Positions 21,417 through 62,000 of a DNA stretch of 64,000 nucleotides are shown here, piece after piece. A program made the translations under genes and the position numbers. Where the stretch lies: contig CAXXPQ010000001.1 of NCBI GenBank assembly GCA_963668655.2, positions 663,318 to 727,317 of the forward strand, read 5' to 3'. Position 1 is the stretch's first letter, and each line of letters begins with the position of its first letter. This DNA comes from Myxococcota bacterium. Lineage in GTDB: Bacteria > Myxococcota_A > SURF-8. A model generated the notes under the pieces. That model saw only the letters and a list, made by a program, of their open reading frames with translations, was not told where the DNA came from and did not search any database.

Positions 21417-21424
21417 ACCTTGCT

Positions 21425-25044: not shown

Positions 25045-25078
25045 CGGCGGCGATGGAGATCGCGTAAAGGAGCGAACG

Positions 25079-36336: not shown

Positions 36337-36484
36337 GTTTTTTTCCTGCCTTCGTTGATGTGCCGTTTTCGAAATGAAATCTCTTCGCACCCATCATTAT
36401 GGCCAAACCGCGTGGTTCGTCAAGGTTCCCCCTCGTCTTCCGGATTTTTTCCATCGCATTCGCCCCGGAGAAACCATGTGTGCT

Positions 36485-36826: not shown

Positions 36827-36881
36827 AGGGGGTTGCATATGTTCGGGAGGGGCGGGGGGAAAGATCGCCCGTGGTTTTTTG

Positions 36882-38693
36882 CTATTTCTTCGGTTCGGAA
36901 TACATCTCTTCGATCTGGTCTTTGTAGAGTTCATTGATAATTTTGCGCTTCAGTTTCATGGTGGGAGTCAGCTCGCCCGTTTCCTGGGAGAATGAATGGT
37001 CGATCAGGCGGAATTTCTTGATCTGCTCCACCCGGGCGAACTGATCATTGTAGGCGTTGATGGCTTCTTCGTACAGTTTTTGAACTTCGGCCAGTCCGAT
37101 GAGGTCGGCATGACTCTTGAATTCCAGGTTGCGTTCCCGGGCCCAGTTGGCCAGGGCCTCGAAATCCGGGACGATGAGAGCCGAGATGAAGGGACGACCG
37201 TCCCCGATGGAAACGATGGTTTCGATGTACGGATCGATAATCATGGCGCGCTCCAGATTCTGCGGGGAGATGTTTTTCCCGCCGGCGGTGATGAAGAGTT
37301 CTTTCTTTCGATCGGTAATGGACAGAAAACCGTCGTGGATTTCTCCGATATCACCCGTCTTGAACCAGCCGTTCTCATCGAAGGTTTCGCGGGTGGCCTC
37401 GGGTTTGTTGTAGTAGCCCTTCATGACCTGCGGCCCCTTGATGAGGATTTCGCCGTCGGGAGCGATGCGGAGTTCGGTGTCCAGCACGGCTTTTCCCACG
37501 CTGCCGAAGCGGAAGTCCTTGAAGGTGTTCAGGCAGACGATGGGCGTGGTTTCGGACAGGCCATAGCCCTCGTTGATCCACAGGCCCAGGGCATGGAAAA
37601 ATTCGTTGATCTCCCGGGCCAGGGGGCCGCCGCCGGAGATGAACATCACGAGGCGATCCGCGCCGAGCCCGGTGCGGATTTTGGAAAAGATCAGGCGTTC
37701 GGCCAGTTTGTGTTGCAGGGAGAGCCAGGCGGGCAGGGATTTCCCCGTGGTGCGATAGACGGTGGCCCGTTTTCCCACTCCCAGGGCCCAGGAAAACAGC
37801 GATTTCTTCAACGGGCTGGCTTTGGCCAGTTTTTCGTGTACGCCGTTGTAGATTTTCTCGAAGAGTCTCGGCACGCTGATGAGGAAGTCGGGACGCAGTT
37901 CCTTCATGTTTTCCACGATGGTGGTGGTGTCCTCGGAATAATAGACGGTCCCGCCCAGGTAGATGGGAAAGTACCAGCCTCCGGTGCGTTCCATAGAATG
38001 GCTGAGCGGCAGGAAACTGAGCGCCATCTGACCTTCCTTGAAGATATCGCCGTAACAGTCGCTGGCCTGGTAGACGTTGGACAGGAAATTCTTATGGGTG
38101 AGCATGACGCCCTTCGGGGGGCCGGTGGTTCCGGAGGTGTAGATCAGCGTGGCCAGATCCAGGGGCGCGATGTCGTCCAGACGGCGTTCGAGTTCCTCCG
38201 GGGCGTCATGGTCTTCGCCCAGGGCGATGACGTCGTCCATGTGCAGGACGGTTTCGCCGTCCTCGACGCCCAGCCGCTCCATGGTGATGACGTGGGAAAG
38301 TCCCTCCACGCCGTCCCGGACGCTTCGGATTTTCTCGAAGTGTTCCTTTCCGGCGACGACCACCATTCTGCTTTTGGAGTCGTTCAGAATGTATTCGCAT
38401 TCCAGGGCCGAGTTGGTGGCGTAGATGGGGACGTCCACCGCGCCGCAGGAGAGGATCGCCAGGTCGGCCAGTCCCCATTCCGGACGATTGGGGCTGAAGA
38501 TGGCGGCGTGACCGCCCGGCCGGAGTCCCAGGGAGATGAGGCCGAGGGCGAAGTTTCGGACCTTGCGTTCCGCCTCGCCCCAGGTCATGGTTTTCCAGGA
38601 ACCGTTTTCCTTCCATCCCAGAAAGGGCGTCCCCGGAATTTCCGCAGCCTTGTTGAAAAACGTCTCGGGGATATGCCTTTCCTTGATGTCCAT
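36882..38693 (-). CDS. Long-chain acyl-CoA synthetase (AMP-forming, FadD/FACL-like)
   Basis: AMP-binding motif LIYTSGTTGPPKGVMLTH. Also GYGLSET and the GDIG..DG...I.DRKK region. GGAAGGAG RBS. Confidence 0.85.
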   Translation of the reverse strand: MDIKERHIPETFFNKAAEIPGTPFLGWKENGSWKTMTWGEAERKVRNFALGLISLGLRPGGHAAIFSPNRPEWGLADLAILSCGAVDVPIYATNSALECEYILNDSKSRMVVVAGKEHFEKIRSVRDGVEGLSHVITMERLGVEDGETVLHMDDVIALGEDHDAPEELERRLDDIAPLDLATLIYTSGTTGPPKGVMLTHKNFLSNVYQASDCYGDIFKEGQMALSFLPLSHSMERTGGWYFPIYLGGTVYYSEDTTTIVENMKELRPDFLISVPRLFEKIYNGVHEKLAKASPLKKSLFSWALGVGKRATVYRTTGKSLPAWLSLQHKLAERLIFSKIRTGLGADRLVMFISGGGPLAREINEFFHALGLWINEGYGLSETTPIVCLNTFKDFRFGSVGKAVLDTELRIAPDGEILIKGPQVMKGYYNKPEATRETFDENGWFKTGDIGEIHDGFLSITDRKKELFITAGGKNISPQNLERAMIIDPYIETIVSIGDGRPFISALIVPDFEALANWARERNLEFKSHADLIGLAEVQKLYEEAINAYNDQFARVEQIKKFRLIDHSFSQETGELTPTMKLKRKIINELYKDQIEEMYSEPKK

Positions 38694-38754: not shown

Positions 38755-41700
38755 TCAAGGGGCCGTGCAGTCCGTCAGGCAGATACAGGTTCCTTCTCCA
38801 TCCACAAAGGGGATCCGACCTTCCCAGCAGGTCTGTCCCACGTCGCAAAGCGGCGTCCCCGGCGAGGATTCCTGGCAGGCATCGTCCAGGCAGACGTGAT
38901 GGCCTTCCGCGCCGCAGCAGCGTTCGCCGCCGTTGCAGGCGCCGTCGTCCCCCCAACCGTTTCCCGCAAGAATCTGTTCCATCGGATCGCAGGTGACGCC
39001 CGGATCTTCGCAGACCGGAGGGTTGTGATTCCAGGGTTCGCAGTAGCCGCCGTCGTCTCCCGCCACGCCGCCTGGGTAGGCCACGCAGGCCCACTGGGGT
39101 TCCGTGTCGTCCCGGGTTTCGTCGGCGGGATCGGCGGGACAGTCCGCCGCCCCCAGCGTACAACCCGCCACGCAGCGGGCCGAGATCTCCCCTTCCACGC
39201 AGATATCGCCTTCGGTCGCACAGGCCGAGGGATCCAGCGGATCGCAGACGGGCAGGGCGTCCCACCAGGAGAGGAAGGTTTCCGCGACATGGCTCTGCTT
39301 GCGGCAATAGCCCGTTTCGAACAGGGAGACGCCGAATTCGTCGGCCTGGATGTGCGGCATGCAGGTGAAGCCGTCGTCGCATTCGTGGGGCAGAGGCGTG
39401 CAGGGAATGCGGCATTCCCGGAAGACGGCCTGCCCCTGCACGCGGTCCACGCAGACGCCGTCTCCAAGGAAGGGATGGCGGACGCTCAGTTCGAACGGCC
39501 CGCCGTGGATGCGGCCGCCTTCCTTCAATCCGTCCACGATCACGCAGTAACTCCCCGGGATGAGTCGCAATTCCTCCAGCCGCGGGCTGAAGCCCATGAA
39601 GCCGTCGTCGCAGGCCAGGGGCTCCGAGTCGGCGTCGTCGCAGGGGCCGCTCCAGACCTCCAGCGCGGCCTTGAATGCGGCGGAAACGCGCAGATCCACC
39701 TGGACGGTTTTCGGGACGGTCAGTTCGAACATCTGATCCGGGCTGCCGCCGGTTACGGCGCAGCTTAAAGAAACCTTGTCCGTACGTCCGGAGGTGTCGC
39801 CCGCCGCCCAGACACCGGCGGTATAATCCAGGTCGGACAGGATCGTGGCGCGGTCGGCGCGTTCTCCGTCTCGCGGTCCGGCGAAGGCCGCCCGCATGGA
39901 GAGCGACGCGGCCAGGATTTCCGCCGTTTTCCCGGTCTGGTTGTCTACGACCAGCCGCCAGGTTCCGGCGGCGTGGACGTTCTCCAGGCGGTCCAGGTTT
40001 CCCGGCGTGCTGATGGCGGGCAGGGCGAGGGAAAGCCGCCAGCCGGTTTCTCCTTGGGCGGCCGCGCCGCTGTCGCCTCCCGGCCAGGAGCGGAAGTCGG
40101 AGAATCCGCCGATGGCGAGTTCGGTTCCGTCCGGCGCGACGAGGGTTAGATCCAGCGAGGACGCGGGCGATTCCGCGAACTCGACGGCGAACAGGAGCCC
40201 CAGGTCCAGCACGTCCAGGGCGGGAAGATGCAGGGAGAAGGTGTTTTCTCCCGAAAACAGCGGCGTACTGACGGGTTCCAGGAAATCGTACTTCTGGGCG
40301 GCGGCGCTTCCGGCGGGGTTGGGGATCATGCGGACCTCGGTCCGGTTGCCCGGGTCGTCGGTGAAAAGCAGCACGTCCCTGCGGCCGTCGCCGTTCGCGT
40401 CGAACAGCCGCAGGCCGGTGGCCCAGCCGTCCCCGGCGTCGTAGGTGGCCTGGGGGCCGAAGGATCCGTTCGACTGTATCAGACGCACGGCCAGGCGCAG
40501 GCGCGGCGGGCCGGTGGCGACCGAAGGAAAGACCACGAGGAGATCGTCCAGACCGTCGCCGTTCATGTCCGCCCATTCGAAAAAGACCTTTCCCAAAAGG
40601 CCCTCCATGGCGAAGGCGACGGGTTCGGCCGTTTCGGTGAACGCGCCCATGCCGTCTCCCGTAAAGATCCGCAGAAGATTCTGGGACGTGCGAACCGCCA
40701 GGTCTTTCAGGCCGTCGCGATTCAGATAGCCCACGCGCACGGAGGCTCCGTCCAGATCCTCCGGCCCCACGGGAAATTCGTCGATGCCTTCCTCGGAGGC
40801 GGCATGGCCGTACAGGCGGCCGTCGTCCGCCAGGACCAGGAGATCCGAGCGGCCATCCGCGGTCAGGTCCGCCGAATGCAGTTCGAGGATGCTGCGTTCG
40901 CTGAAGTCCATGGGGGAGGCGAAGGTGCCGTCTCCCTGGGAAATGAGGATGGCGTCTCCCAAAGCGAGATCCCCCAGGCCGTCATCGTCGAAGTCTCCGT
41001 GCAGCACGGCCAGCGTGTCGATGGCGAGCATTATGCCCGTGTCGATGCCTGCGTCGAAGGATCCGTCTCCCGTTCCGGGAAAAACGGTGAGGTACGCTTC
41101 GGGGCCGCCCGTTCGCGTGTGGACCAGGGCCAGGTCGAGCAGACCGTCCACGTAGAAATCTCCCACCACGAGCCGTCCGGCTTGTACGTCCGTCAGATCG
41201 ATCTGTCCGATGAGGCGTGTGTCGGGCGGGACGGAGGAGGGCGGGACTTCGCGGATCTCGATGCGTTCTCCATCGACGAGCCAGGCCATGTCCGCACGGC
41301 CGTCGTTATCGAAGTCGCCGAGCACGGCGTCCTGAATCGCGTCGTTGCCGAACACGGAGCTTTGGAAGGGCGCGCTCCGGCCCTCCATGCGGCCGTCCAG
41401 GAACACGGTGCGGACGCCGGAATCCTCCGCTTGCAGGGCGGCCAGTTCCAGAAGGCCGTCGCGGTTGGCGTCCGTGAGAAGGAAATCGGAAATGTGCTTG
41501 TCCTCGCCGATGCCGGAGTTTTCTATGATATTGGAGAGGGCGAAAACGCCGTTGCCCTTTCCCGGATACCACAGGAAGCGGGCCGGCGCGCCCGGTGTGC
41601 TCATGGCCAGAAGATCGAGGCGTCCGTCGCCGTCGAAATCGGCCACGGTGAGGGCTTCCGCCGGCAGTTCCAGGGTTTTCGCTTCCACGCTTCGGAAACG

Positions 41701-44700
41701 GCCGCCGCCGTCGGAAAGGAACGTGACCAGTCGATCGGGATTCGCCGCCGATCGCGCCAGGAGGTCCGGAGCGCCGTCGAAATTGAGATCCCCGACGAAC
41801 AGGAGGCGCACGGGTTCGGTCAGCGTCAAGGCGGCGTAGCTCATTCGCAGCACGCCGTTTTCCGCCTCCACGCCCAGATACCAGCCCAGCACCGCGTCCG
41901 GGGAACTCATGGCGATGTCCGGCTTCCCGTCCCCATTGAAGTCCGCCGCCAGGTAATCGAGCGCATCGAATTCCGGTGGATTATCGCCGTGAACTTCCTC
42001 GAAAGCGCCAGGGACGAAAGAACCGTCCGCCCGGTTCACGTACCAGGCCGGGCGGCGATTCACGGCATCGTGAACCAGGATGTCCGGGCGTTTGTCGCCG
42101 TTGAAGTCCGCGATGGCCAGGATATCCGTCTGCCAGCCGAGATCTTCCACGAGCCGGCCGTTTTCCGGGCTCGAAGCGCCGTAAAAGACCGCGCCCGCGC
42201 CCGTTACCAGATCCCGATAGCCGTCGCCGTCCAGATCGGAAACGGCGAGCGTGCGCACCGGGTCGGAGAACGATACCGCCGGATCGAGCACGGAAAACGG
42301 CTGCACCTCGTCCGCAAGCGTGTTGTCGGAGCGGGGTTCGTAGAGCGTCACGGTGGAAAGATCCGCCGCCCAGGCCGCTAGTTCGGGCAGGAAATCCCCT
42401 TGAATGTCGCCGGTTTCGAGATGTTGCAGGGTTTCCGCGTGGGCCTGTCCGAAGGCGTTCGGATGAAAATGCCCGCTCTGACGGCCCAGCGAGGAAAGAT
42501 CCGTAAAAGCCTTCGCCGGTCCCGGAGAGCTTTCCAGTTCGAACCCGGAAAGGGGCGTGCCCAGGGGCAGGCCCAGGGCATGGGGGCCGCCCGGATAGCT
42601 CCCGGCGGGACGGGTCGCCGTGCGTTCGTCCGATGTCCACTGAGAGAGGCGCACGTGGGTTTCGGGATCGGAGACGTAGACGCCCGCGGAAGCCCGTATC
42701 TCTGCGGAATCCGGGAACTCGCCGGAATCCCAGGGACTTTCGAAGCGTTTGCGGATTCTGGCCGGATCGCGGGCGATACGGTTCGTGGCGTCCAGACGGT
42801 TTTCCATCACGTCGTCGCCGTTGGCGTCTTGAACGGATTCCACCCGGTGATTGACGGCGAAGGGGCGGGCGCTCTGCCCGCCGCCCGGCGCGGCGTTGAC
42901 CACCGCGAGGTCGTAGGGGGCATCCGCCGCCGGAAGCGCAAAATCGGGGAAGCGCGCCAAAAGAATCCAGGAGGTGGGGCCGCCGGATTCCGAGCCCTCG
43001 GCCTCCGGATCGGGCAAGAGGCGCAGCACCTCGCCTTCCGTCGAATCGATCTGAATACGGGCGTTGTCCATGAAGCGGAAGCCCTCTACCCATACGAAAA
43101 GATCCTGTGAAATCGGGAGATTCTGCTCGTCCAGCCGTTCGACGGCATAGGATTGCGGCAGGAAAGGCCGCACGCAGGCGGACAGGTCTCCTGCCCCACA
43201 AGCCAGGCGCAGTTCGTCCAGCAGCTGTTCGGCTCCCGACGGACAGGTTTCGATGGCGGCCGTGCAGTTCTCCGGGAAGGTTTCGCAGGCCCAGAACTCC
43301 CGGCGACAGGCCTCGGGCAGCCAGGCGATGGCCTGTCTGGATTCGAAGTCCAAGGCCGTGACGGCGGTGATTTCCGGAGCCGGAGCCACGACGTGCAGGA
43401 AGTCCGTCTCCTCCGAAACGCCCGTGGATTCCACGGGTTCCGGGGTGACGACCCGCACCGGATAGGAACCGGTGGCGCGCATCAGCGGGTGGGTGTCCGC
43501 CAGAACCAGGCGGCAGCAGTTGATGCAGTCGGGGGGCACGCCGTCTTCCGCCGCCGGGCAACTTACGGCGTCGCTTTCCGCCGCCGTGCAGGCCATTCCG
43601 TTGACCGTGCCGGAAAGCCCGCAATCCATCATCAACTCGAAATCCCCTATCCGTGCCCGGGTGCCGTATTCCGGATGGCCGGGAGCCCCGGAGACGAAGT
43701 TCCAGCCGAAAATCGTCAGATCCGTCAGGCCGTTTTCGGAGTTCATGGCCACTACGGAGCCGGGCGAAACATGAGAGAGCGCCGGGACGGGACGCGTGCT
43801 CTGGGGTACGTCCAGAAGTTCAAGATGGAACTCTCCGATGGCCGGAACGTGCGTATCGGGAAGTTCGCTGCCGTTCTGCGCCCGGTCGAAAAAGCGGAAA
43901 TACAGGATTTTTTCTCCGGGTTCACCTTCCAGGGAAAGCGAGACGCCGGACGTGGCCGGGATGCAGTCCGCGTCGATGGGGGAACAGTTTCCCATGTCGC
44001 TTCGGTTCTGGGATACCTTGAAATAGGCCGTATCCGCGTCCGATTCCCGGATTTCCACCTGGACCACGGCGGAGGACACCGGAACGGGCGTTTCTCCCTC
44101 GGACCAGGATTCTCCGTTCACGCGCAGGCGGCCCAGGCCGGGGGGCGTGGTGTCCGCCTCCACGACATCGAAAAAGCCCGGCGAGACGTTGCCGGCTGCG
44201 TCCTTCAGAAAAGCGGAAACCGTGTTCAGCGCGTTGGGGTTTTTCAACTCCAGATCCAGCGGAAAATTCGTCAGCGCGACCGTTCGTTCTCCGTCCGCCA
44301 GATCGCCGCGCAGCACCGCCTTCAGACCGGTTTCGGCGCTCTGAACGTTTACGGAAACCGTCGCCGTGTTCACCAGATCCGCTCCTCCGGCCAGGGTGAG
44401 CGTTCCCGCGACGGGGGGGACGGTGTCCAGAGATATCTCGTTTTTGCTTTGCAAGGCCGCCGGGGTGACGTTTCCGGCATTGTCCCGGGCGCAGATCCAC
44501 AACGAGCGCAAGCCTTGTATGCCGGAAATGACGGTTCCGAAACGGCCGTCTTCCGGAAGCGTACGGTACTCGCCATGGGCGCAGTCGAAATCCGTTTCCG
44601 AAACGGCCACGCCGGCCACGCCCGACAGCGCGTCGGTGGCGTCCACATGCACGTCCACCATGGGACTGCTCGCCATTTCCCCCGCCGCTCCTCCGTTCAG

Positions 44701-45921
44701 CGTGCAGCTGACCTCCGGCGAGGTATGGTCCCACACCAGGGTTTGCTGCCGGGGTTCCGATTCATGGCCCGCCACGTCCGAGCACTTGACGGAGATCGTA
44801 TACTCGTTTTCGCCGTCGGCGAGCGTGAACGCCAGGTCGGGTTTGTAGGCCAGCCGTTGCCAGGCCGCCGAACCGATGCGCAGCCAGGCGTACGTCGCGG
44901 GTCCGGCCTCGTCCACGCAGGACAGCGAGAGAGCCACCAGACCTTCGGCGGTGTTCAGATAGCCGCTGCCGTTTCCCAGCACGACGTCCGCCAACACCGG
45001 GGGCTGACTGTCGGAAACCACCGTTTCGACCATGATTTCGGATTCGAAGCCGCAGGCGTCCGCGAACTGAATCCGCACGGTGTTCGTGCCTTCGGAAAGT
45101 CCGGAAAGATCCAGGTCGCCTTCACCGTCGAAGTCTCCGTAATCCGGGGTGTTTTCTCCGATCCAGATGCGCGCCCGGTTGGCGAAGGCCGCCTTGGCGT
45201 GAAAACGGATGTTTGCTTCGTCCACATACCAGAGACCTTCGTGAAGCGTCGCCTCCACGGCGTCCAGTTTTACGGTCTCGCCGTTCAGCGTGAAGGTCGG
45301 GCCGTCTACGTGGTGCCCGTTCCAGGCCACGACCACTTCCCGTCCCGAACAGGCCGCGTCCAGCAGGTCCGGTCCGATGGCCGAAAGGGAATACGCGCCC
45401 ACCGGCACGTTGGAGAAGACGTACTCGTTCTCGGCGTTCGGCTGCGTTTCCTGGCTTACCGCGCCCAGAAGCTTCACGGAAACCGAGGACGGCGCCACGC
45501 CTTGGGGAAGAATCAGGCTTCCCGTTACCGATCCGACGCCGGTTTTCAGAACGATATCGCCAAGATGGATGGCGTCGCCCGCTTCCAGGACCACGGAGGC
45601 GGCATAGGTGTTATAGGCCGATCCCTCGGCGTTGGCGACCAACCCGCCGCTGTAGGCGATGCTTATTTCGTAGGTCTTGGCTTCCAGGTCCGCGAAGCGG
45701 AACGCACCGTCCGCCTCCGGGGCGACGCTCTCGCCCTGTCCGATATCGATACTCACTCGTGAGATGTCGTTCAGGCCTTCCATATTCGAAAGGACCACCC
45801 GACCCTGGAGGCTGCCCGTGGTTTCCCGTGGTGTTTCGGTTTCGTCCCCGGAACACCCGGCGATCCAGAGAACAGGAAGAAAACCTACGGCCAGAATCAC
45901 CGCCCAAAAACGTTTCCGCAT
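38755..45921 (-). CDS. Giant FG-GAP/VCBS-repeat surface lipoprotein (2388 aa) with CarboxypepD_reg-like, Ig/IPT-like, P-domain-like, PPC-like and Cys-rich C-terminal regions
   Basis: Start at MRKRFWAVILAVGFLPVLWIAGC (45921, AAGGAG RBS). About 13-14 repeats of the D-x-[DN]-x-D-G-x-x-D-[LI] type (DLDGDGYRDLV, DFNGDGKPDIA, DMNGDGLDDLL...). GTWRLVVDN is P-domain-like. Confidence 0.85.
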   Translation of the reverse strand: MRKRFWAVILAVGFLPVLWIAGCSGDETETPRETTGSLQGRVVLSNMEGLNDISRVSIDIGQGESVAPEADGAFRFADLEAKTYEISIAYSGGLVANAEGSAYNTYAASVVLEAGDAIHLGDIVLKTGVGSVTGSLILPQGVAPSSVSVKLLGAVSQETQPNAENEYVFSNVPVGAYSLSAIGPDLLDAACSGREVVVAWNGHHVDGPTFTLNGETVKLDAVEATLHEGLWYVDEANIRFHAKAAFANRARIWIGENTPDYGDFDGEGDLDLSGLSEGTNTVRIQFADACGFESEIMVETVVSDSQPPVLADVVLGNGSGYLNTAEGLVALSLSCVDEAGPATYAWLRIGSAAWQRLAYKPDLAFTLADGENEYTISVKCSDVAGHESEPRQQTLVWDHTSPEVSCTLNGGAAGEMASSPMVDVHVDATDALSGVAGVAVSETDFDCAHGEYRTLPEDGRFGTVISGIQGLRSLWICARDNAGNVTPAALQSKNEISLDTVPPVAGTLTLAGGADLVNTATVSVNVQSAETGLKAVLRGDLADGERTVALTNFPLDLELKNPNALNTVSAFLKDAAGNVSPGFFDVVEADTTPPGLGRLRVNGESWSEGETPVPVSSAVVQVEIRESDADTAYFKVSQNRSDMGNCSPIDADCIPATSGVSLSLEGEPGEKILYFRFFDRAQNGSELPDTHVPAIGEFHLELLDVPQSTRPVPALSHVSPGSVVAMNSENGLTDLTIFGWNFVSGAPGHPEYGTRARIGDFELMMDCGLSGTVNGMACTAAESDAVSCPAAEDGVPPDCINCCRLVLADTHPLMRATGSYPVRVVTPEPVESTGVSEETDFLHVVAPAPEITAVTALDFESRQAIAWLPEACRREFWACETFPENCTAAIETCPSGAEQLLDELRLACGAGDLSACVRPFLPQSYAVERLDEQNLPISQDLFVWVEGFRFMDNARIQIDSTEGEVLRLLPDPEAEGSESGGPTSWILLARFPDFALPAADAPYDLAVVNAAPGGGQSARPFAVNHRVESVQDANGDDVMENRLDATNRIARDPARIRKRFESPWDSGEFPDSAEIRASAGVYVSDPETHVRLSQWTSDERTATRPAGSYPGGPHALGLPLGTPLSGFELESSPGPAKAFTDLSSLGRQSGHFHPNAFGQAHAETLQHLETGDIQGDFLPELAAWAADLSTVTLYEPRSDNTLADEVQPFSVLDPAVSFSDPVRTLAVSDLDGDGYRDLVTGAGAVFYGASSPENGRLVEDLGWQTDILAIADFNGDKRPDILVHDAVNRRPAWYVNRADGSFVPGAFEEVHGDNPPEFDALDYLAADFNGDGKPDIAMSSPDAVLGWYLGVEAENGVLRMSYAALTLTEPVRLLFVGDLNFDGAPDLLARSAANPDRLVTFLSDGGGRFRSVEAKTLELPAEALTVADFDGDGRLDLLAMSTPGAPARFLWYPGKGNGVFALSNIIENSGIGEDKHISDFLLTDANRDGLLELAALQAEDSGVRTVFLDGRMEGRSAPFQSSVFGNDAIQDAVLGDFDNDGRADMAWLVDGERIEIREVPPSSVPPDTRLIGQIDLTDVQAGRLVVGDFYVDGLLDLALVHTRTGGPEAYLTVFPGTGDGSFDAGIDTGIMLAIDTLAVLHGDFDDDGLGDLALGDAILISQGDGTFASPMDFSERSILELHSADLTADGRSDLLVLADDGRLYGHAASEEGIDEFPVGPEDLDGASVRVGYLNRDGLKDLAVRTSQNLLRIFTGDGMGAFTETAEPVAFAMEGLLGKVFFEWADMNGDGLDDLLVVFPSVATGPPRLRLAVRLIQSNGSFGPQATYDAGDGWATGLRLFDANGDGRRDVLLFTDDPGNRTEVRMIPNPAGSAAAQKYDFLEPVSTPLFSGENTFSLHLPALDVLDLGLLFAVEFAESPASSLDLTLVAPDGTELAIGGFSDFRSWPGGDSGAAAQGETGWRLSLALPAISTPGNLDRLENVHAAGTWRLVVDNQTGKTAEILAASLSMRAAFAGPRDGERADRATILSDLDYTAGVWAAGDTSGRTDKVSLSCAVTGGSPDQMFELTVPKTVQVDLRVSAAFKAALEVWSGPCDDADSEPLACDDGFMGFSPRLEELRLIPGSYCVIVDGLKEGGRIHGGPFELSVRHPFLGDGVCVDRVQGQAVFRECRIPCTPLPHECDDGFTCMPHIQADEFGVSLFETGYCRKQSHVAETFLSWWDALPVCDPLDPSACATEGDICVEGEISARCVAGCTLGAADCPADPADETRDDTEPQWACVAYPGGVAGDDGGYCEPWNHNPPVCEDPGVTCDPMEQILAGNGWGDDGACNGGERCCGAEGHHVCLDDACQESSPGTPLCDVGQTCWEGRIPFVDGEGTCICLTDCTAP

Positions 45922-49469: not shown

Positions 49470-49868
49470 TTACGGACTCTTGAATCCGCAACGCTCCTCG
49501 ATTTCCTCGCAGGCCGAGCCCACCAGGCAGGCGGCCATTCCTACCGTAATCGCGCCCTCGTCCTCGCAAGTCAGAAAACAGTCCGCCAGCCATGAATCCG
49601 CCAACAACTCGCTTCCGCCATGAAAGGAACGATCGCATTCCCGGAACTTGATGCAGGCCGCCCGACACAGGCGTTTGCCGGCCGGTTCCGCCGATCCCGC
49701 GCCGTCGTCCGTCAGATTGTAATTCTCGCTGACATAGGAGCACTTGCAGTCTTCGTCGTCGCAACCTCCCGGACAATCGCACTGCCGATCCATCGTACTG
49801 CCGGACAGGATCAGTGTCGCCAACGTCACGATCATGCCCATGGATATGGTTTGCATTCGCCGTTTCAT
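49470..49868 (-). CDS. Small secreted cysteine-rich protein (132 aa, 12 Cys)
   Basis: GGAGGTG RBS before the ATG at 49868 (MKRRMQTISMGMIVTLATLILSG...). The rest of ORF 49470..50276 is intergenic repeat sequence. Confidence 0.6.
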   Translation of the reverse strand: MKRRMQTISMGMIVTLATLILSGSTMDRQCDCPGGCDDEDCKCSYVSENYNLTDDGAGSAEPAGKRLCRAACIKFRECDRSFHGGSELLADSWLADCFLTCEDEGAITVGMAACLVGSACEEIEERCGFKSP

Positions 49869-50028
49869 GGTCACCTCCGCGAAAGAAAAAACTGCTTTCC
49901 ATCGCCAGTATACCACTGAAATCCGCCCGTGGCACGATTCGAATTTCCCCGTCAGCCATTCCCCCGAACTCACGGCCGATCTGCGGGTCGGGCCCGGAAC
50001 GTCCGTTCGAGCACGGCCCCGGCCGCCC

Positions 50029-50286
50029 CGGTCTGGCATGGTTTTTGCTCCGGCACGCCTTTTGCTCCGGCATGCGGATTGCGTTCCGGTTATTGTAATG
50101 AAATCAATGGTTTGCAATCTCCATGCCGGTTGCAAAAGGCGCGCCGGACAGCCCGGATCACGTGAAAACCGTTCGGATAAAAGTCGTCTCCCGGCGCTTT
50201 CTTTCCGCCCGGAAAGCGCCGGGAAATCCCTGCGATTCCAAGCGGTTTTCGCGCGAACGGGCTTGCAAAAACCCATGCCAGACCGG
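50029..50286. repeat. Nested-palindromic intergenic element, copy B
   Basis: TIR CCGGTCTGGCATGGTTTTTGC (50029-50048) versus GCAAAAACCCATGCCAGACCGG (50265-50286). Left module aligns to copy A. Core 12-bp hairpin at 50190-50223. Confidence 0.85.
50113..50146 (-). promoter_or_regulatory. Tandem sigma-54 -24/-12-like boxes facing the small Cys-rich protein gene
   Basis: Minus strand reads CGGCGCGCCTTTTGCA then CCGGCATGGAGATTGCA, ~235 nt upstream of the ATG at 49868. Confidence 0.3.
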
Positions 50287-50345
50287 GGCGGCCGGGGATT
50301 GGAGGAAGGGGGCGATTGCGGAGGAACCCGTGACTTTCGGCGCGT

Positions 50346-51164
50346 TCAGGCCGTACGGATCGATTTCCGGATCATGCGGTCGGTGATGTGCTCCACCAAG
50401 CCGGGAGCCAGGCGTTTGGCCCAGTGAACGAGATGGCCATCGATTCCGGGAATGATGAGGAAGCGATTTTTACGTATCCCGGCCAGGAGATCCCGTGCGA
50501 CCTCATCCGCCGTTAAAAGTTTCGCTCCGGCGGAGACCGCCGCGGTTTCGGGCGGCTTGGTGCGATTCTCCCGGTGCAGGCCCGGGGTGTCGGTGTCCGG
50601 GGGGCAGAGCACGGACACGGCGATATTGTGAGATTTCAGTTCGGAACGCAGAGCTTCCGAAAAGCCGATCAGAGCGAATTTCCCGGCGCTGTAGGCGGTG
50701 AATCCGTAGACGCCGATGAATCCGGCGATTGAGGAGGTGTTGACGATGTGGCCGCCTGTTTTCTTCATAGCGGGAAGCAGAGCCGCGATGGTGTTGCGGC
50801 TGCCGTAGAGATTGACTTTCAGCACATGGTCGAAGCGTTCGTATGAAATGTCCTCGAAGCGGCCGGGGAGGCTCTGACCGGCGCAATTGATTAAAAGATC
50901 GGGGGCCCCGTATCGTTCGACACATGCGGCACAGACCCGATCGACGGCCCGGGGGTCGGTGACGTCCAGCGGGTGGGAGAAGACGGCGTTCATTCCGTTG
51001 GGCGCGTATTCGGCCACGGCCTGGCGAGCGGCATGCAGGCGGTTTTCGTCGCGGGCGAAGAGCACCGGGCGTGCCCCGGACCGGGCCAGCCGTATCGCGG
51101 CGGCGAGTCCGATGCCGCTGGAGGCGCCGAAGAGAAACGCGGTGCGGCCGCTGAAGGATTTCAC
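50346..51164 (-). CDS. Short-chain dehydrogenase/reductase (SDR), 3-ketosphinganine-reductase-like
   Basis: The GTG start overlaps the GT2 stop (GTGA). Motifs GASSGIGLA (TGxxxGxG), NCAG and YSAGKFA (YxxxK). The upstream part of ORF 50346..52220 is a different frame product and is rejected. Confidence 0.8.
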   Translation of the reverse strand: MKSFSGRTAFLFGASSGIGLAAAIRLARSGARPVLFARDENRLHAARQAVAEYAPNGMNAVFSHPLDVTDPRAVDRVCAACVERYGAPDLLINCAGQSLPGRFEDISYERFDHVLKVNLYGSRNTIAALLPAMKKTGGHIVNTSSIAGFIGVYGFTAYSAGKFALIGFSEALRSELKSHNIAVSVLCPPDTDTPGLHRENRTKPPETAAVSAGAKLLTADEVARDLLAGIRKNRFLIIPGIDGHLVHWAKRLAPGLVEHITDRMIRKSIRTA

Positions 51165-53056: not shown

Positions 53057-56000
53057 TCAGAGAATTCCCAGGTTCAGTTCCTTACGACAGCGGTAGTATT
53101 CTGGGCTGATGAAGAAGGCGATCAGTTCCCGGACGGTCTCGGCGCGCTCCTCCTCCGTCAGACGTCCCGGGTGTTTCTCCAGCGTTTTCAGCGCCGTGGC
53201 GAGATCGTTGCACAGGAGCAGCCCGGCGCGATAGGCGCTGAGACGCAGCGCCCGCCGCCAGCGCCGGATGTCCAGATCCTTGGCGGATTCCAGGTATTCC
53301 CCGATGAATCCGCCCAGGGGCTCGCGGACTTTTTTGGGAAGGCCCTTGTCGATCTTCTTCGTCAGTTCGTCCACGGCCGCCTTGTTTCCGGCCGCCTGGA
53401 ATCCGGAATCGAAAAGCCGGGCGGCGGCGTCCAGCAGGGCGCGTACGTTGCCTTCCGAAAGCATGTGCGGAATCAGGAAGTCCGGCCGGACCAGCATGGC
53501 GTTGGAGGTCATCAGGAAGACCAGTTCCCGCTGGGGGAAGTTCTCGAAGGCGTCCGCGCCGATCATGAGCGTCATGGGCTGCACCGCCAGGGGTTCCACG
53601 CCGGGGCCGTAGCCCTGTTTCATGTAGATTTCCGGCGTGGGCAGATTCAGGGTTTTCAGAATGTCCACCGTGGTGGTGCAGATGTTGATGTGTTCGGACA
53701 GGTCCAGACGATTCTTCTTCTTCAAGCCTTCCTGCCGAAGATCGGAAGGCATGACTCCGCCGATGTGGTGGTAGAGGATGTTCAGAATCTGGCCGATGCT
53801 GTGGCGGGCGTCGGGATGAAGCAGCGCGCCGGCCCAGCTTTCCCGGGAAATCGTTCCGATGGCTTCCGCCTTCAGTTCGTGCTTGTTGTCCCGATAGAAT
53901 TCCGCTGCCGGGTGGCCCTCGCCGCCCAGGTAATCCGCCACGGAGGCGAAGATGAAGGCGCGGTCGAACTCCTCGGCCCCGAAATGAATCTTCCAGAGCG
54001 CGCGATAGGCGTCCACGCGTTCGGGATCCTGTTGCAGCACCGAGTGATAGAGCTGGCGGGCCTTGTCCTGATACTTGGGGCTACGCAGGTAGAGGTCGGC
54101 CATGATTTCCGTGGTGGCGGGATTGTCCGCGTCGTAACGGCTGATGACCTCCCAAACCTGCACGGCGTCGTCCAGGTATTCGTCCCGGTTGGCCAGCAGG
54201 CGCCCCAGTTTTTTCCACATGCCCAGCCAGCGATCCGTGTCCTCCTGGGGAATGCGGGTAATCATGAGACGATAGTTGCTGTCCAGTTCGTCCCAGTCCT
54301 CCCGCTTCATCAGGAAATCCTCGATCTTTCGGAACAGATCGTCCCGGGACGGATCGATGTCCAAGGCGGCGTTGAAATATTCCAGACAATCCTTGGGGTT
54401 GGCTCCGTTCTCCATGATGAGATCGCCCAGGTGAATGTTCAGCTCCAGCCTTCGGCCGTCGTCCTCTTCCAGTTCCAGCGCTCCGCGCAGGACGCCGATG
54501 GCGTCTTCCATGTTTCCGGAACGCAAAAGCAGATCCGCCAGGCGCGTGAGCAGGGCGGGGTCGTTGGCCTTGATTTCCAGGGCATGGCGATAGGCTTCCA
54601 GTCCCTTTTCCAGGTTGTCCAGTTTTTCCGCGTAGATTTCTCCCACGGCCTTCCACTGTTCGAAGAGGTCGTCGTCCTTGACCAGCTTGATGAGCTTGGC
54701 GCGGTTCTGGAGGGCCTTCTTCCACATCTCCAGGGATTCGTAGATATTCACCAGATCCGTCAGCGCCAGCACCGAGCGCGGGTCGCGCTCCAGGGCCTTG
54801 TCGAACATGCGCACGGAGGCTTCGATTTTGCCGAGCTTGGCGTTCAGCCGTCCCAGGCGGCAGAAGAGTTCCACGATCTCCGAACCGGATTTCTTGCTTC
54901 GGAATCGAGCCAGAATGGTCTGGGTGACGCGGAAGGCGCGCTCCCAGTCTCCCCGGCGCTCCAGGGTGCGGCTGAGGCCCTCCAGGGTGGCCAGATTGTT
55001 GGAATCGATCTTGTAGGCGGTGGTGTAATGATGCAGCGCCTCGTTGTCGTTTTGCTGAAGTTCGGCGATGGTCGCCACCTTGTGATGCAGCAGCCCCTTT
55101 TCCGCCGGGGGCATGTCCGCGGCCACGTCCAGGTGGTGCAGAAGAATTTCCCGGGCCTCGTCCCAGTGTTCCCGCTCGAAGTGGATGCGTCCCAACCGTT
55201 GCAGCAGCTTGAGATGATCCGGCGCGTGGGAGAGGGCTTCCCGGTAGATGATGATGGCCTGATCCAGGTCGTTTTCCTTTTCCTCGTAATACCGGCCTTC
55301 CTCGTACATCAGGCGGCCGCGTTCTTCCGCGTCCTCCACGTACTGCTTTTCCTGGGCGAGGGTTTCCAGGAATTTGGGCCAGTCCTCCACGGCCGCGTAG
55401 TATTTGCGCAGGGCCTGCAAGGCCGGGACGAAGGTCGGGTCCAGGGCCAGCATGCGGTCGTAAACGGCCTTGGCGCTCTCGCGATCGGAAAGCTGCTCCA
55501 GGTGAATGCGGCCCACGTGGGCCAGGGCGGCCACCTTCTTCTTCATGTCCGGGGACAGATCCGCGATGCGTTCCAGCGTGGTGATGGCCCGCTCCCACTG
55601 TTCATGCGCGGCATACAGGTCCGCCAGGGCCTGCCAGGCGTCCACGTAGGTTTCGTCGATCTTCAGCGCCTTGTTGAAGAACTCCACCGCCTGGGTGGGC
55701 TGGAACATGAATTCGCCGTGGATGCGTCCCAGTTTCACGCAAAGTCCCACGATCTCGTCGGCGTCGATGCTCTGGTCCAGATGACGCTGGTAGGCGGAGG
55801 CCAGGGCGGGCCAGTCCTCGGCCTCGCGGTAGACCCGCTCCAGGGTTTCCAGGGACTTCAGGTCGGCGGGTTCCAGATCCAGGGCCTTTTCCAGGTACGA
55901 CACCGCCATGTCGGGCTGCACGAATTTTTCCAGCCAGATCATGGCCATCTTGCGATACAGGGAAACCTTCTCCTCCGTGGCCTCCGAGACGTTCACGCGG

Positions 56001-59000
56001 CGGGAGAGGATCTCCAGCAGTTCGTCGTAGTTTTCCTCTTCGGAGTAGATGCCCTCCAGGGCCTCCAGGGCCTCGCCGCATTGGGGATCGTCCGCGACCA
56101 CGCTGCGATAGAAGGTCTTGGCCTGTTGCAGATCGCCGAGTTCGGTGCGGTAAAGTGCGGCGATGCGCAGGCGGAGCCGGCTGATTTCCGCCGGATCGCT
56201 GACCAGATGCATCTTCTTGCGAAGCATCTCCGCCAGGGGTTTCCAATCTCCCCTGGCCTCGAAAATCCCGATCAGGGCGTCCACCGCCGGTTCGCAGCGG
56301 TCGTCCATCTTCAGAACCTGGTAATAGGTTTTGACGGCCCGGTCGGTCTGTTCCAGGCGGGTATTGAAGATCTCCGCCACGCGGCATCCCACGGCGACCT
56401 TTTCCTCCTGGTTCATGTACGGAATCTTCATCTGATAGGCGCCCACCAGTTCCGCCCACTCGTCGCGGGACTCGTGATAGGCGATGAGGAATTCCACGGC
56501 ATGGTCGTCGAAGGTCTTGGTGCCCAGAAACGCCTTGTAATAATCCGCCGCCTCGTCCAGGCGATCCAGTTTGCGTTCCAGAATGTTGGCGATGCGCAGG
56601 GTGAAGGCTTTGAAGAGACGTTCCTCCTCCTCCACCTGGGGAATCAGGCCGGAAAGCAGCTCGACGAAATCGGCGTGCCGCTCGGTGTCCGCGCTGAGCT
56701 GCCCCAGTTTTTCCAGCAGCGAGGCGTCGTCGAACTCGATTCGGAACAGTTCCGCCAGCGCGTCATAGGCCGCCGAGAACTCGCCCAGTTTTTCCTCCTG
56801 GATTTCGGCCGTCTGGCGCAGCATGATGCAGCGCTCGGGCAACTCGGCTTCCTCCATGCGCACCCGTAGCACGCCGATGAGCTTTTCCCACTCGCCGGAG
56901 GTGCGGTAATAATCCTCCAGGAGTTCGGCGGCCTGGAGGTTCTTCGGTTGAATTTCCAGCACTTTCTCGTAGCTGAGCTTGGTGCTTTCGTTGTCTCCGA
57001 TGCGGTCGCGCCAGATCTCGGCCATGCGGAAATGAATGGCCACCTTGGTGGCGTCCTCCTCCGCCAGAAGCGCCTGGCGGTCCAGGATTTCCAGGTACAG
57101 CCGGTGGGAATCCGTCGCGCCGAACAATTCCTCCAGCCGGGCGACCTCCACCGCCGTCGGATCCGCGGCCAGAAGCTGACGGGTGAGATTTTCCGCTCCG
57201 GCGCGATCCCGAAGATATCCCAGGCGCAGGGCCACCAGCCGCAGATTCAAGGCCCGCAGGTCGGCGCCTTGGAGACGCGGAGCCAGCCGTTGCAGCAATT
57301 CGGCCAGCTTCGCCCAGGACTGGTTCTTCTGATACAGTTGCTCCAGGCGGTCCACCGTCTCCATGTCCTCGGGGCTGTATTCCAGCACCTTGAGCAGAAG
57401 CTGGGCGGCCTGGTCTTCCTGGCCCAGGTGATCCAGATGGACCAGAGCCATTTTCTTCACGATTCCGGCCCGTTCGGCCGCTCCGCGCGCTCCACGCAGA
57501 CGCTTTTTCAGGTGTCCGATCAGGTCGCTCCACATTTCCTCGCGCTCGTAGAGATTTTCCAGCTTCTCCATGAGCGCCTCGTTGCGGTCGTCGAATTGCA
57601 GGACGCGCTTCCAGATCGGAATGGCCTCCCGGGGCTGGCCCAGGCGGCGGTCGATCACGTCGGCCATGCGGGCGTAGAGCCGGGCCTTCTTGGTGTCGCC
57701 GCGCGCGATGCGGATCTCGGCCTTGTAGATATCCACGAGTTGATCCCACATCTCCTCGTTCTCGTACAGCCGTTCCAGGGCGGCCAGGGCCGCCGCGTTC
57801 TCGGGCTCCTCGTGCAGAACTTGTCCGAACATGTCGATGGCGGTGAGGTTGTCGCCCAGTTTTTCTTCCCAAAGGCCGCCCAGGCGCAGGCGCTGTTCCA
57901 GGATCTCCTGCCGGTCGTCGAACATGGCGAATTCGCGCGGAATCAGTTCCACCAGGTCCGCGAAGCGCTCGGTGCGTTCGTACAGGCGATCCAGGGCGGC
58001 CATGGCGGTGAAATGCTTTTCGTCGATGTCGAGAATCTGGGTGTAGGCGTCGATGGCCCGTTCGTCCTCGTGAAGTTGGTTCTCGCAGATCCGGGCGATT
58101 TTCATCAGGAATTCCAGGCGGATATCCTGTTCCTCGACCTCCTCGAAGAGTTCGCGATAGGTGTCCACCAGGCCGTCGTATCCGCCCGTGGCGGTGGCCA
58201 GCCGTTCCATTTCCTTTCGGGCGTTTTCGCTGCGGAAATCGTCCCGAAGGATGCGGCGGGCCACGTCGAAGGCCTGGACCGGGTTGTCCAGCTTTTCTTC
58301 ATAGACCAGTTTAAGGCGCGCCCAGGTGGATTTCTGTTCCTCCTCTCCGGCCATGGCGGCGGCATAGGTTTCGAGCAGATCGGCCAGACGCTGCCACCAG
58401 CCCTTGTCCTCCAGGATGGGAGACAGGATGGCCAGGGCCTCGCCGCGGAACCCGGTTTCGGCCACCATGCGTTCCAGGGCTTCCAGGGTGCGGGCGTGCT
58501 CGTCGTCCTCGATCAGGATATTGCGATAGATGCCGAGGGATTGCTGGGATCGGTCCAGGTGTTCCTCCAGCAGGCGACCCTTGCGGAACTCCAGATCGTG
58601 ACGCGGCGCGCCGTCCTCGGTGATCGCGATGCGGCGGTCCAGGATGCCGTCCAGTTCCTCGTAGTGTTCCAGGTCGAGATACAGCCGGTCCAGTTCGGCC
58701 AGTCCCGGGCCGTGTTCCGGGTCCACGTCCAGCACTTCCAGGAAGGCCGCCACGGCGGCGGGCTGGTCCACCATGCGGTATTCCAGCACTTCCGCGGCGG
58801 AGGAGAGCAGGGCGATCTTCGCGGCGGGTTCCGCGGCCAGTTCGGCCTTGCGCTTGAGCACGCGCACCAGCTTTTCCCAATCCTCCAGGCGTTCGTGAAT
58901 CCGTTGCAGGTTGTCGAGAGCCGGACCGTTTTCCGGATCCAGGGTTTCCACCAGTTCGAAATCCGGCTCCGCGCCGGCGGGATCGTCCAGTTTTTCCAGT

Positions 59001-62000
59001 ACGATGCGACCCGCGCCCAGCAGCAGCGCGGTCTGCAAGGCCATGTCATCGACACGATCCACCATGCTTCGATAGGCGGAGGCCGCGTCCATCCAGCGGC
59101 CCGAGTCCTCGGCCAGGCGTTCCAGCAGGGTGCGGATGTCCGGGTTGGCGGCATCGGAATCGAAAGCCGAAAGGGCGGAGGAAAAGGCCCGGTTGGCGTC
59201 GAACAGCATGCTTTCCGCGATGTGTGTCATCCGCAGGTACAGATCGCGCCGGTCTTCCGGGGTCGGGGCGTGATTCGCCTGGATGTCCAGGGTGCGGATC
59301 ATGGGATCGAAACGTCCCTCCACTTCGTAAATGGGTTCCAGCACCTTCGCGGCGGCCAGTTCGGCTTCCGGAATCCGCAGAAGTTCTTCCAGGGCTTCCC
59401 GGGTGGCGACGTACTGGCGATTTTCCTCCAGAATGGAGGCAAAGCCCTCGATGGCCTCCGGGATGCGATCCAGTTGCTGCCAGAGAACCAGTCCGATCTC
59501 GTGACGCAGATCCCAGGCTTCCTCTTCGTCCCGGGCCAGTTCGAGCTGACGCAGGCGCACGCCGTGCAGTTCCTCCCAGCGTTCCTCGTTGGCGGTCAGC
59601 CGCACCAAGGCTTTCAGCGCCTCGCGGTCGGTGTCGTCCAGGACCAGGATCCGTCGGTAGGTATCGATGGATGCGGCGTTGTCCGCCATCTCCTCCTCGA
59701 ACAGCGTGGCGATCTTGAACAGGAGATCTTTGCGCGTCTCCAGATCCTCGGAAAGGGCGAACTTGCGTTCCAGGATGTCCACCAGTTCCGGCCATTGCCG
59801 TTCCACGTTGTAGATGCGTTCCAGGTTATCCAGCGCTTCCAGGTGCTGCGCGTCCAGCACCAGCACCTGCCGGTAATGCTCCGCGCTGTCTTCGACGCGC
59901 TGGAGGTGGGTTTCGGCCAGGGCGGCGGCGCGCATGCGAATGGCGACGATCAGGTCGGCTTCTTCCTCGGCGGAAAGCTGCCCGATCTTTTCGTCGAACA
60001 GCGTGGCGAGCTGTTCGAACTGGCCCAGGGTGGCGGCCAGGCGCTCCAGGTGATCCTGGACGTCGAACACGTCCGGGCGTTCGCGGAAGGCGCGGGTATA
60101 GACGCCGAAGGCCAGCATGGGGCCGCTCAGGCGCTCTTCCCACAGAACCGCGATGGATTGCAGCAATTCCAGACGTTCGTCCCGGTCCGTGCTATGGATA
60201 AATATGTACTCCCGCATGTCCACCAGGCGGTCCCAGTCTTCCCGGCGCTCGTAGAACGGCGCCAGGTAGCGGGCCAGTTCTTCCTGGAACTCCTCGCGTT
60301 CCACGTAGGATTCCAGCGTTTGCAGAGCGCGCTCGTTGTCCTCGTTTTCATCCAGGATGCGTTTATAGATGTCCTTGGATTCGGCGGACTGGTTCAGATA
60401 GGCCTCGTGCAGTTCGGCCTTGGCGACGAGCAGGGCGTGGCGCACGACCATGTCGTCCATGAAGGCGACTTTCTTCTCCAGAAAGAGCGCCTTGTTCTCC
60501 CAGTCGCCGCTCGTGTCGTAAAGTCCCAAAAGCGTATCGATGGGCTCCAGGTCGTCCGGGGAGAGTTCGTGGATTTTCTCGTAGTAGGGAATGGCGCCCA
60601 CCGGATCGTCCAGTTTTTCCTCGAAAACCGCGCAGGTCTTCCGATACAGGGCGATCTTCTCCTCGGTTTCCTCCACGTGTTCCGCCCGCTGGAGGTAGGT
60701 CCGGTACAGATCTTCCCAGCGTTCGATCCGGTTGCAGATGCTCTCCACGGCCTCCACGGCCGTCTCGTTGTTGGGATCCCGGTCGAAGACGCGGCGATAG
60801 GCGCCGATGGCGTTTTCCGGTTCGGCCAGGATGTCCTCGGTCAGAAGAGCGGCCTTGATGAACAGCTCGGAGGAACGTTCCAGATCCTCCGCGTTTTCCG
60901 CCGCGTGGGCGCAGGCGTCCGCGAGCGGCCGCCACCAGCCCAGTTCTCCGGCCAGTTTCTCCAGTTCGTCCAGGGCGGCGTCGTTGGAGGGATCGTCCGC
61001 GAAGACGCGCGCGAAGCCCTCGAAGGCCTTTTCGTTGTCCTGGAGTTCCCCGTAGATGCCGGAAATCTTCTCCAGCAGCGTGGCTTTCTGGGCGGGGGAG
61101 TCCGCGTTTTTCAGTTTGATTTCGTAGACCTGGACCAGACGTTTCCAGTCCTGGGCCTTGATGTATTTCTCCTCCATCTCCTCCGCGAACAGCAGGCTGG
61201 TGCTGTCCTGGGAGAGCAGGCGGCCGACGAGCGCGCCGACCACGGGGCTGTTGGTGTAATTGCGCGCCAGGTCGAGATAGATCTCCACGGCCTCGTCCAG
61301 GCGTTCCAGGTTGTTTTCCAGAAGCGAACCCATCTGAATCTTCACCGGCAGGATGTCGTCGTCCTCCCGCAGGTATTTCAGCTTGCGTTCCAGAAGGTCG
61401 TAAAGTTCCCCGTAACGTTCCCCGGCGTGAAGGATTTCCTCCATTTTCTCGAAGACTTCGGGGTCGTTCTCCCGTTCCTCCAGAAGCCCGCCCAGAAGTT
61501 CCAGGGCGGCCTCCGGATTGTCCAGCCGGCGATAATTGTGCAGGGCCAGTTCCAGGGCCACCTCGCGCCGGGCGCTCTTTTCGGTGGAGGCCGCCAGCTT
61601 GCGTTCCATCAGGTCGGCCAGGGCGTGATCGTCCCCGCTTTCCCGGCTCAGATCCACCAGGGCTCCCAGGGCGGCTTCGTTGGCGGCGTCCACGTCCAGG
61701 ATGGCCTGATAGCGGGCCCGGGCCTCTTCCGGCCGGTCGAGACGATCCTTTTCCATCTCGGCGGCCGTAAACAGAATCTGCACCCGGTGTTTGTCTTTCA
61801 GATCCCGGGCCAGCTTCAGATCGCAGAATTCGATGAATTCCCCGTCGCTTCCGGTGGCGATGGCGGTGCGAAGCAGATCCTTCAGCGCCGCGATGCCTTC
61901 GTCCGACAAAAAAGCCTTTCCGAACCACTTGAACGCCTGGGGAGCGTCGTTCAGGTCTTCCTCGTACATGCGCGCGATGCGGCGGGCCTGCCGGATGGCC

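Follow-up and report, generated by a model that had tools for sequence, protein, structure and literature searches.

A modular palindromic repeat carrying arrays of sigma-54-type boxes in a Myxococcota bacterium

Small non-coding repeats located between bacterial genes are well known from the Correia elements (CREE/NEMIS) of Neisseria, which are 100-155 bp long, have copy numbers in the hundreds, show a TA duplication and contain parts of sigma-70-type promoters. The ERIC and BIME-1 (RIP) repeats are imperfect palindromes found in transcribed spacers between genes of the same strand; ERIC copies are known that have insertions at set internal positions, and the inverted arms of BIME-1 are separated by an IHF site, whilst to our knowledge neither of them is known to contain promoter boxes. 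Canonical sigma-54 (RpoN) promoters provide a further point of reference, each having a single -24/-12 box in which GG and GC lie exactly 10 nt apart within the extended consensus TGGCACG-N4-TTGCW, located some 50-100 nt from the gene and served by an upstream enhancer. The sigma-54 regulon is large in delta-proteobacteria-like and myxobacteria-like lineages. Here, we describe a palindromic, non-coding repeat from a 64,000-nucleotide stretch of the genome of a Myxococcota bacterium (GCA_963668655.2, contig CAXXPQ010000001.1, positions 663,318 to 727,317; the whole stretch is referred to below as the window). The repeat is present as copy A (36485-36826, 342 nt) and copy B (50029-50286, 258 bp), and the conserved parts of both can be reduced to one 16-17-nt unit that resembles the sigma-54 box. 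The element is a modular, probably transposed, non-coding repeat built of sigma-54-type boxes, similar in kind to a miniature inverted-repeat transposable element (MITE), and it probably plants binding sites for RpoN polymerase between genes.

Like the Correia elements, this element is small, non-coding and intergenic, is bounded by inverted repeats, has a central IHF-type site and promoter-type sequences, and would form long hairpins when transcribed. It differs from them in its length of 258-342 bp, in its variable core, in having two known copies, in a putative duplication that is inseparable from the repeat and in its boxes being of the sigma-54 type, and the two share no sequence similarity. 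With ERIC and BIME-1 it has in common the imperfect palindromy and the position in a spacer between same-strand genes; there is again no sequence relation, and the arms of the element described here are made of sigma-54 boxes. These boxes match canonical sigma-54 promoters in spacing and in extended consensus but, unlike the canonical arrangement, three tandem boxes face three inverted ones within a palindrome, 224-233 nt from a start codon. Multicopy palindromic intergenic sequences have been reported in general terms from Geobacter (PMC2996986), and a sigma-54-like promoter from phage YuA (PMC10914365). We found no description in the literature searched of sigma-54 boxes in dispersed repeats, nor of tandem or convergent sigma-54 arrays in phages.

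Two copies of one modular element

Copy B has the same architecture as copy A. Both are bounded by a terminal inverted repeat (TIR) of 20-21 nt with the consensus CGGTCTGGCATGGTTTTTGC and, over 21 nt, the right end of copy A is the reverse complement of the left end of copy B. The left TIR is followed by a 96-nt hairpin module (36509-36604 in A, 50051-50146 in B) that is 90% identical between the copies in an ungapped alignment, and then by a core of 200 nt in copy A (36605-36804) and 119 nt in copy B (50147-50265). The cores are unrelated, their best local alignment in either orientation reaching a score of 22 against 16.9 +/- 2.4 for shuffled sequences, and a concealed similarity or an inversion linking the two was rejected on this result. 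Homology between the copies begins and ends exactly at the ends of the TIRs, beyond which both the flanks and the flanking genes are unrelated, and so the element has been placed at two sites independently of its neighbours. Copy B is confirmed as a genuine second copy of a modular element, with ends that are conserved and a core that is not related to that of copy A, which is what had originally been predicted for it from the letters of the sequence. The identity of about 88% given in that prediction also holds for the left block of TIR and module (88.4% over 121 columns), although the single indel described there proved to be several single-nucleotide gaps. The sharing of the TIRs was likewise seen correctly and their extent understated, since the inverted repeat of copy B is 30 nt long with 97% complementarity (50017-50046 pairing with 50268-50297) and brings the copy to 50017-50297. 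The left arm of its outer stem (50017-50048) comprises the TIR in common with copy A (50028-50048) and an extension, 50017-50027, that is absent from the repeat of copy A. The right arm, 50266-50297 on the minus strand, contains the right terminal repeat.

Both copies are found at the same sites, with about 98-99% identity, in an independent assembly of a sister strain (ERZ21831104, 1.15% diverged), which excludes an assembly artefact. Copy B differs from its counterpart in that strain by 5 single-nucleotide polymorphisms (SNPs) in 258 nt, which is unexceptional against the 1.15% background, and the idea that divergence is raised in the elements was discarded. Within the core of copy A (36760-36775), three of the four strain SNPs of that copy cluster within about 10 nt, in a stretch predicted to be unpaired. 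The public assembly of the sister strain calls genes of 198 amino acids (L057:11699-12295, minus strand) and 193 amino acids (L059:10643-11224, plus strand) that span the copies and correspond to positions 36399-36995 and 49846-50427 of the window. Neither has a Pfam match, the two are unlike each other, and both are almost certainly spurious gene calls. No homologue was found among 5.8 billion proteins for the module translated in all six frames. In two respects the element looks like a MITE, namely in being small and non-coding, with open reading frames that differ across the two copies, and in having TIRs at which the homology between copies ends.

On either strand, each copy is predicted to fold as a Y, consisting of an outer stem formed by the TIRs, a module hairpin of 31 pairs and the core. 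The minimum free energies are -197.9 (plus) and -194.9 (minus) kcal/mol for copy B, with z about -16, and -217.7 and -202.8 kcal/mol for copy A, the z-scores of both copies ranging from -14 to -17. Each core has its own closing stem together with perfect GC-rich hairpins, of which there are three in copy A and one in copy B. The hairpin of copy B, at 50190-50223, had been placed correctly in the original prediction and described there as a single 12-bp structure; it has 14 bp, is GC-rich and is enclosed by an imperfect outer stem of about 20 bp. A parS-like half-site, CACGTGAAAAC, was also considered in the core of copy B; it is absent from the sister strain and was treated as a chance occurrence.

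Sigma-54-type boxes in the element, in the lineage and in phages

The 16-17-nt unit occurs as three plus-strand boxes at a 17-bp phase and as three inverted partners on the minus strand. In copy B, box 1 (TGGCATGGTTTTTGCT, 50034-50049, plus strand) is a sigma-54-type -24/-12 box lying within the left terminal repeat, and it is followed on the same strand by box 2 (CGGCACGCCTTTTGCT, 50051-50066) and box 3 (CGGCATGCGGATTGCG, 50068-50083). All three match GGCAYG-N4-TTGC and have the perfect GG-N10-GC spacing that had been noted for units starting at 50034, 50051 and 50068. The centre, or loop, of the module hairpin (50084-50112) is AT-richer and is the part of the module that varies most, both between copies and between strains. 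In copy B it contains AATCAATGGTTTG (50102-50114, plus strand), an exact fit to the IHF consensus WATCAANNNNTTR; copy A agrees at 7 of the 9 specified positions, and the site should be viewed as a candidate only. On the minus strand, box 3' (CGGCATGGAGATTGCA, 50113-50128) is perfect, faces the downstream gene and has a predicted start at about 50102, box 2' (CGGCGCGCCTTTTGCA, 50131-50146) reads GGCGCG and has lost one consensus position, and box 1' (TGGCATGGGTTTTTGC, within 50266-50297) has one extra base, giving GG-N11-GC. The boxes of copy A lie at 36509-36524 and 36526-36541 on the plus strand and at 36571-36586, 36589-36604 and 36805-36820 on the minus strand. Its left terminal box has an extra base, and each copy has one TIR arm of this kind.

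Ten of the twelve boxes in the two copies match GGCAYG-N4-TTGC exactly, and the window as a whole contains 10 matches against 0.32 expected, 9 of them within copies A and B. Given that duplication and inversion relate the units to one another, the pattern of their divergence is a stronger argument than the number of matches. When the three paralogous boxes are compared pairwise, none of 27 comparisons differs at the nine core sigma-54 positions (GGCA.G and TTGC), as opposed to 21-27 of 36 elsewhere. The arms of the module, which are made up of the boxes, show 3 differences between copies A and B in about 65 nt, compared with about 7 in the 31 nt of the loop, and none of the nine strain SNPs falls in a box. 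The sigma-54 likeness claimed by the original prediction goes far beyond chance, and the constraint follows the consensus positions exactly. As a sequence pattern, constraint limited in this way is the hallmark of a protein site specific for sigma-54, and palindromy alone does not account for the constraint seen at these nine positions.

The tenth match in the window, CGGCATGACTTTTGCT (30634-30649, plus strand), stands alone about 75 nt upstream of an ATG at 30724, where it follows an AT-rich tract, and it serves as a reference for the sigma-54 promoters of this genome. The gene behind it (30724-34698) encodes a 1324-amino-acid, Cys-rich secreted protein with no Pfam domain, belonging to a family with only five homologues among the 5.8 billion proteins searched. 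In two other genomes the homologous gene is also preceded by a box in this position (GGCACGTGTCTTGC at 9918-9931 of L283 and GGTATGGTTCTTGC at 5564-5577 of L286), the distance from box to gene being 45-85 nt within the family. This suggests a conserved RpoN-dependent promoter for the family, and sigma-54-type promoters thus appear to be in use in the lineage for genes of secreted Cys-rich proteins. The stand-alone boxes and those of the element have the same CGGCAYG...TTGCT flavour.

Arrays of such boxes also occur in viral contigs. Two boxes at the 17-bp period were found at 24 loci (L060-L083), compared with 1 locus when the spacing within the box was increased by one and 0 loci when it was decreased by one. 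Face-to-face pairs and back-to-back pairs were each found at at least 120 loci (inverted pairs, L092-L282), and among the inverted-pair matches listed the convergent gaps show a sharp peak at 3-8 nt. Of the tandem pairs found by the 17-bp-period scan, most lie outside long open reading frames, and the contigs with arrays range from 30% to 68% GC. Examples include L060:5660-6440, on a locus with 34 loosely defined boxes in 6.5 kb, L072:9267-9350 and L070:3066-3153, as well as the alternating arrays L280:179-676 and L224:6236-9377, whose contigs encode terminase, portal or other phage proteins. These arrays share with the element the box, its strict spacing, the tandem 17-bp phase, the succession of blocks in opposite orientation and the location in non-coding DNA. 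In contrast to the bacterial element, in which the arms are complementary throughout, the spacers of inverted partners in the phages are not complementary (0-1 of 4 positions) and only the consensus positions are conserved, so that these are arrays of sites and not hairpins; there is no sequence homology beyond the consensus. To judge from these contigs, mobile DNA makes genuine use of sigma-54-type boxes in arrays, as a design that is spacing-specific, and this favours the view that the boxes of the element are protein sites.

Genomic context of the two copies

Both copies occupy a spacer between two minus-strand genes. Upstream of copy B lies a short-chain dehydrogenase (SDR, adh_short) gene (50346-51164, minus strand), the stop codon of which is 49 nt from the extended repeat, and downstream lies a gene (49470-49868, minus strand) for a 132-amino-acid Cys-rich protein with a signal peptide, a GGAGGTG ribosome-binding site and no Pfam family. 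The corresponding neighbours of copy A are the gene of an AMP-binding acyl-CoA ligase, with its stop at 36882, and that of a lipoprotein with a weak match to peptidase C45/AAT. The two downstream genes showed no homology to the Cys-rich family with the stand-alone sigma-54-type promoter. In both copies the minus-strand boxes point at the secreted-protein gene, and so the genes and the orientation that had been cited for a parallel context are as described. The predicted starts of box 3' lie near 36560 in copy A and at 50102 in copy B, which would give leaders of about 224 nt and, to the ATG at 49868, about 233 nt, in agreement with the 220-240 nt given originally; the similarity of these distances follows in part from the fixed left half of the element together with flanks of 150 and 160 nt. 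Between the element and the start codon there is also a sigma-70-like promoter in each case, TTGACG-16-CATAAT on the side of copy A (36396-36423, minus strand; 10 of 12 consensus matches) and GTGCCA-17-TATACT with an extended TG on the side of copy B (49907-49935, minus strand; 9 of 12), from which short leaders of about 30-55 nt would arise.

Elsewhere in the window, a flagellar filament cluster (18613-25546) contains fliD, fliS and two tandem flagellin paralogues with a DNA identity of about 71-73% across the repeats, and no sigma-54-type box was found upstream of these flagellins. Two giant genes on the minus strand encode a 2388-amino-acid FG-GAP/CarboxypepD_reg protein with a Cys-rich C-terminus (38755-45921) and a TPR protein (53057-64000) that extends past the right end of the window and has 4075 amino acids in the sister strain.

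Competing explanations and significance

The explanation that we favour, to which we would give somewhat less than an even chance, is that copies A and B are two insertions of a MITE-like, nested-palindrome repeat whose boxes are bound by the sigma-54 holoenzyme, making it a transplantable, enhancer-dependent docking and promoter module. In such a module, sigma-54 RNA polymerase holoenzyme would bind the boxes around the AT-richer centre, which in copy B is IHF-consensus-like. The minus-strand boxes would give the secreted-protein gene, in addition to its sigma-70-type promoter, an RpoN-dependent one that lies further upstream and has a long leader, and antisense transcription from the plus-strand boxes would enter the upstream gene at its 3' end. 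In both copies the GC-rich core palindromes are located some 75-170 bp upstream of the minus-strand boxes and could act as enhancers for an activator (bacterial enhancer-binding protein, bEBP), this being the usual position for an enhancer. Since the cores found there are different, different activators could be connected to the same promoter module. It is plausible that the element has promoter activity for the downstream genes, with some features opposing a simple cassette.

Several observations weigh against this explanation, and they fall on its mobility as well as on its promoter function. We infer mobility from the sharp homology boundaries at the inverted repeats and from the centring of copy B in a 26-bp palindrome. 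The latter becomes visible when copy B is removed together with one CCGG, whereupon its flanks (50017-50031 and 50283-50297) form the perfect sequence CCCCGGCCGCC-CCGG-GGCGGCCGGGG; either the element was inserted into the centre of a hairpin, or the outer stem of copy B is simply longer than that of copy A. The candidate target-site duplication is this same CCGG (CCGG/CCGG around copy B, TCGG/CCGG around copy A) and, being self-complementary, it is indistinguishable from part of the inverted repeat. Both sites are filled in the sole close strain, more distant relatives have no synteny at the element loci, and neither an autonomous partner nor a transposase was found in the window or in neighbouring loci. 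Only two copies are known, both in the 64 kb of the window, with no further ones in the rest of the window or in the 6.2 kb beyond it in the sister strain. Searches of genomes, metagenomes, plasmids, phages and proteins returned no relatives of the element. DNA-pattern scans gave 55 single matches of 20-28 nt in genome contigs of unrelated taxa, all of them chance, and one chance match within a porin gene in metagenomes; a plasmid collection gave no match, and a TIR scan of viral contigs found only look-alikes of the consensus promoter. The search of related genomes covered about 135 kb, and neither the relatives reached through the ligase (62-63% amino-acid identity; L058, L087, L088) nor those reached through the Cys-rich protein (L085, L086, L283) showed synteny or the element.

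With respect to promoter function, two of the three minus-strand boxes of copy B are imperfect, and plus- and minus-strand boxes stand face to face with the predicted starts of boxes 3 and 3' overlapping, an arrangement ill suited to two promoters that are both productive. The predicted leaders are about four times as long as those of the stand-alone sigma-54 promoters (~50-65 nt), and the sigma-70-like promoters are closer to the start codons. The two cores share nothing, so there is no enhancer common to the copies, and no rpoN or activator gene was found in about 70 kb of the source genome. The context called equivalent by the original prediction rests on two copies, for which agreement in orientation has a 50% chance. 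Taken together, these points qualify the portable RpoN cassette proposed there: the boxes do point at the secreted-protein genes, whilst mobility is weakened by its reliance on the boundaries, with no empty site and no further copies, and the simple cassette by the closer sigma-70-like promoters, the convergent boxes and the long leaders.

The main rival is a structural intergenic repeat of the ERIC, Correia or BIME kind, in which the sigma-54 likeness would be a relic. A Y-shaped RNA arising from read-through would then protect the upstream message from 3' exonucleases, cause partial termination or be cut by RNase III, thereby uncoupling the genes. On either strand the fold is of extreme stability (-195 to -218 kcal/mol, z -14 to -17), complementarity of the arms extends to the non-consensus spacers, and the central IHF-like site recalls those of the BIME-1/RIP and Correia elements. 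The element also follows a stop codon between same-strand genes, with no other terminator before it. Structure alone, however, leaves unexplained the nine sigma-54 positions kept in three diverged tandem boxes, and compensatory changes are absent from the module hairpin, in which 29 of the 31 pairs are invariant and the two variable ones are broken in copy B; this absence of covariation is due to there being too little variation. There are 18 G-U pairs on the plus strand against 10 on the minus strand, and strain SNPs at paired positions retain plus-strand pairing, but transcripts reading through from the neighbouring genes would come from the minus strand and not from the G-U-rich plus strand. 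Selection for plus-strand folding was considered as the source of this excess and set aside in favour of mutational strand asymmetry, the positive GC skew of the region suggesting strand-biased C-to-T mutation as the cause. A scan for intrinsic terminators on both strands found none, the best candidates having 4 U within a downstream stem (copy A) or a run of U 7 nt away from the hairpin (copy B). We consider a purely structural role unlikely, whilst taking it seriously.

The boxes might also be bound without being used as promoters. The sigma-54 holoenzyme forms stable closed complexes in the absence of an activator, and at the element long-lived, never-activated complexes could form a trap or roadblock that insulates the downstream gene or acts as a local sink for RpoN. 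A face-to-face layout that is poor for initiation suits binding, about 120-260 bp contain six sites, no enhancer is common to both copies, and similar face-to-face and tandem arrays are present in non-coding phage DNA; two copies are, however, too few for a sink, and we regard this role as improbable. Even less credence is given to each core being a small RNA gene, with box 1' as its sigma-54 promoter, the GC-rich core hairpin as its terminator and the module as an accessory, producing an RNA of about 115 nt (copy A) or about 85 nt (copy B). Box 1' of copy A (36805-36820) has perfect spacing and is followed about 115 nt on, on the minus strand, by CCCCCGAAAC-AGACG-GTTTCGGGGG and then CGTTTTCG, and the three clustered strain SNPs of that copy would fall in the predicted unpaired 5' part of the RNA. 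For copy B the box is GG-N11-GC and the U run is removed from the hairpin, and for both copies the negative terminator scan and the conserved module would be left unexplained. A search of Rfam 15 gave no match at the gathering score, with only generic miRNA-precursor hairpin matches far below threshold, and no tRNA or tmRNA was found.

Just as doubtful, in our estimation, is the suggestion that the boxes are subterminal sites for a transposase or recombinase, as at the ends of Mu, Tn7 or IS21, with a coincidental likeness to sigma-54 promoters. The TIR is itself a box and has further boxes in phase beside one end, and the position of copy B exactly at the centre of the 26-bp palindrome would suggest targeted insertion. 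By our own estimate, the chance that a repeated 17-bp unit fits GGCAYG-N4-TTGC is about 1e-4, the motif marks stand-alone promoter positions in three genomes, and the boxes are clustered at one end only with no transposase nearby, all of which speaks against transposase sites.

Should the boxes prove inert, the element would be an ordinary palindromic repeat restricted to its species. If they do bind RpoN polymerase, as the explanation we favour holds, then it would be a dispersed repeat with enhancer-dependent promoters and would offer a simple means of bringing genes into the sigma-54 regulon or of shielding them from it. A broader and rather unlikely proposal is that arrays of sigma-54 boxes form a distinct class of DNA element, spread by mobile DNA, that serves as docking or trapping platforms for the RpoN holoenzyme. 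The palindromic, transposable-looking repeat described here would then wire secreted-protein genes into the RpoN network or insulate them from it, and the hundreds of phage arrays would perhaps capture or redirect the RpoN polymerase of the host. The combination of a promoter module that stays constant with a palindromic core that can be exchanged suggests how one promoter may be coupled to different activators, and the phage arrays suggest that the design may be a general one in mobile DNA.

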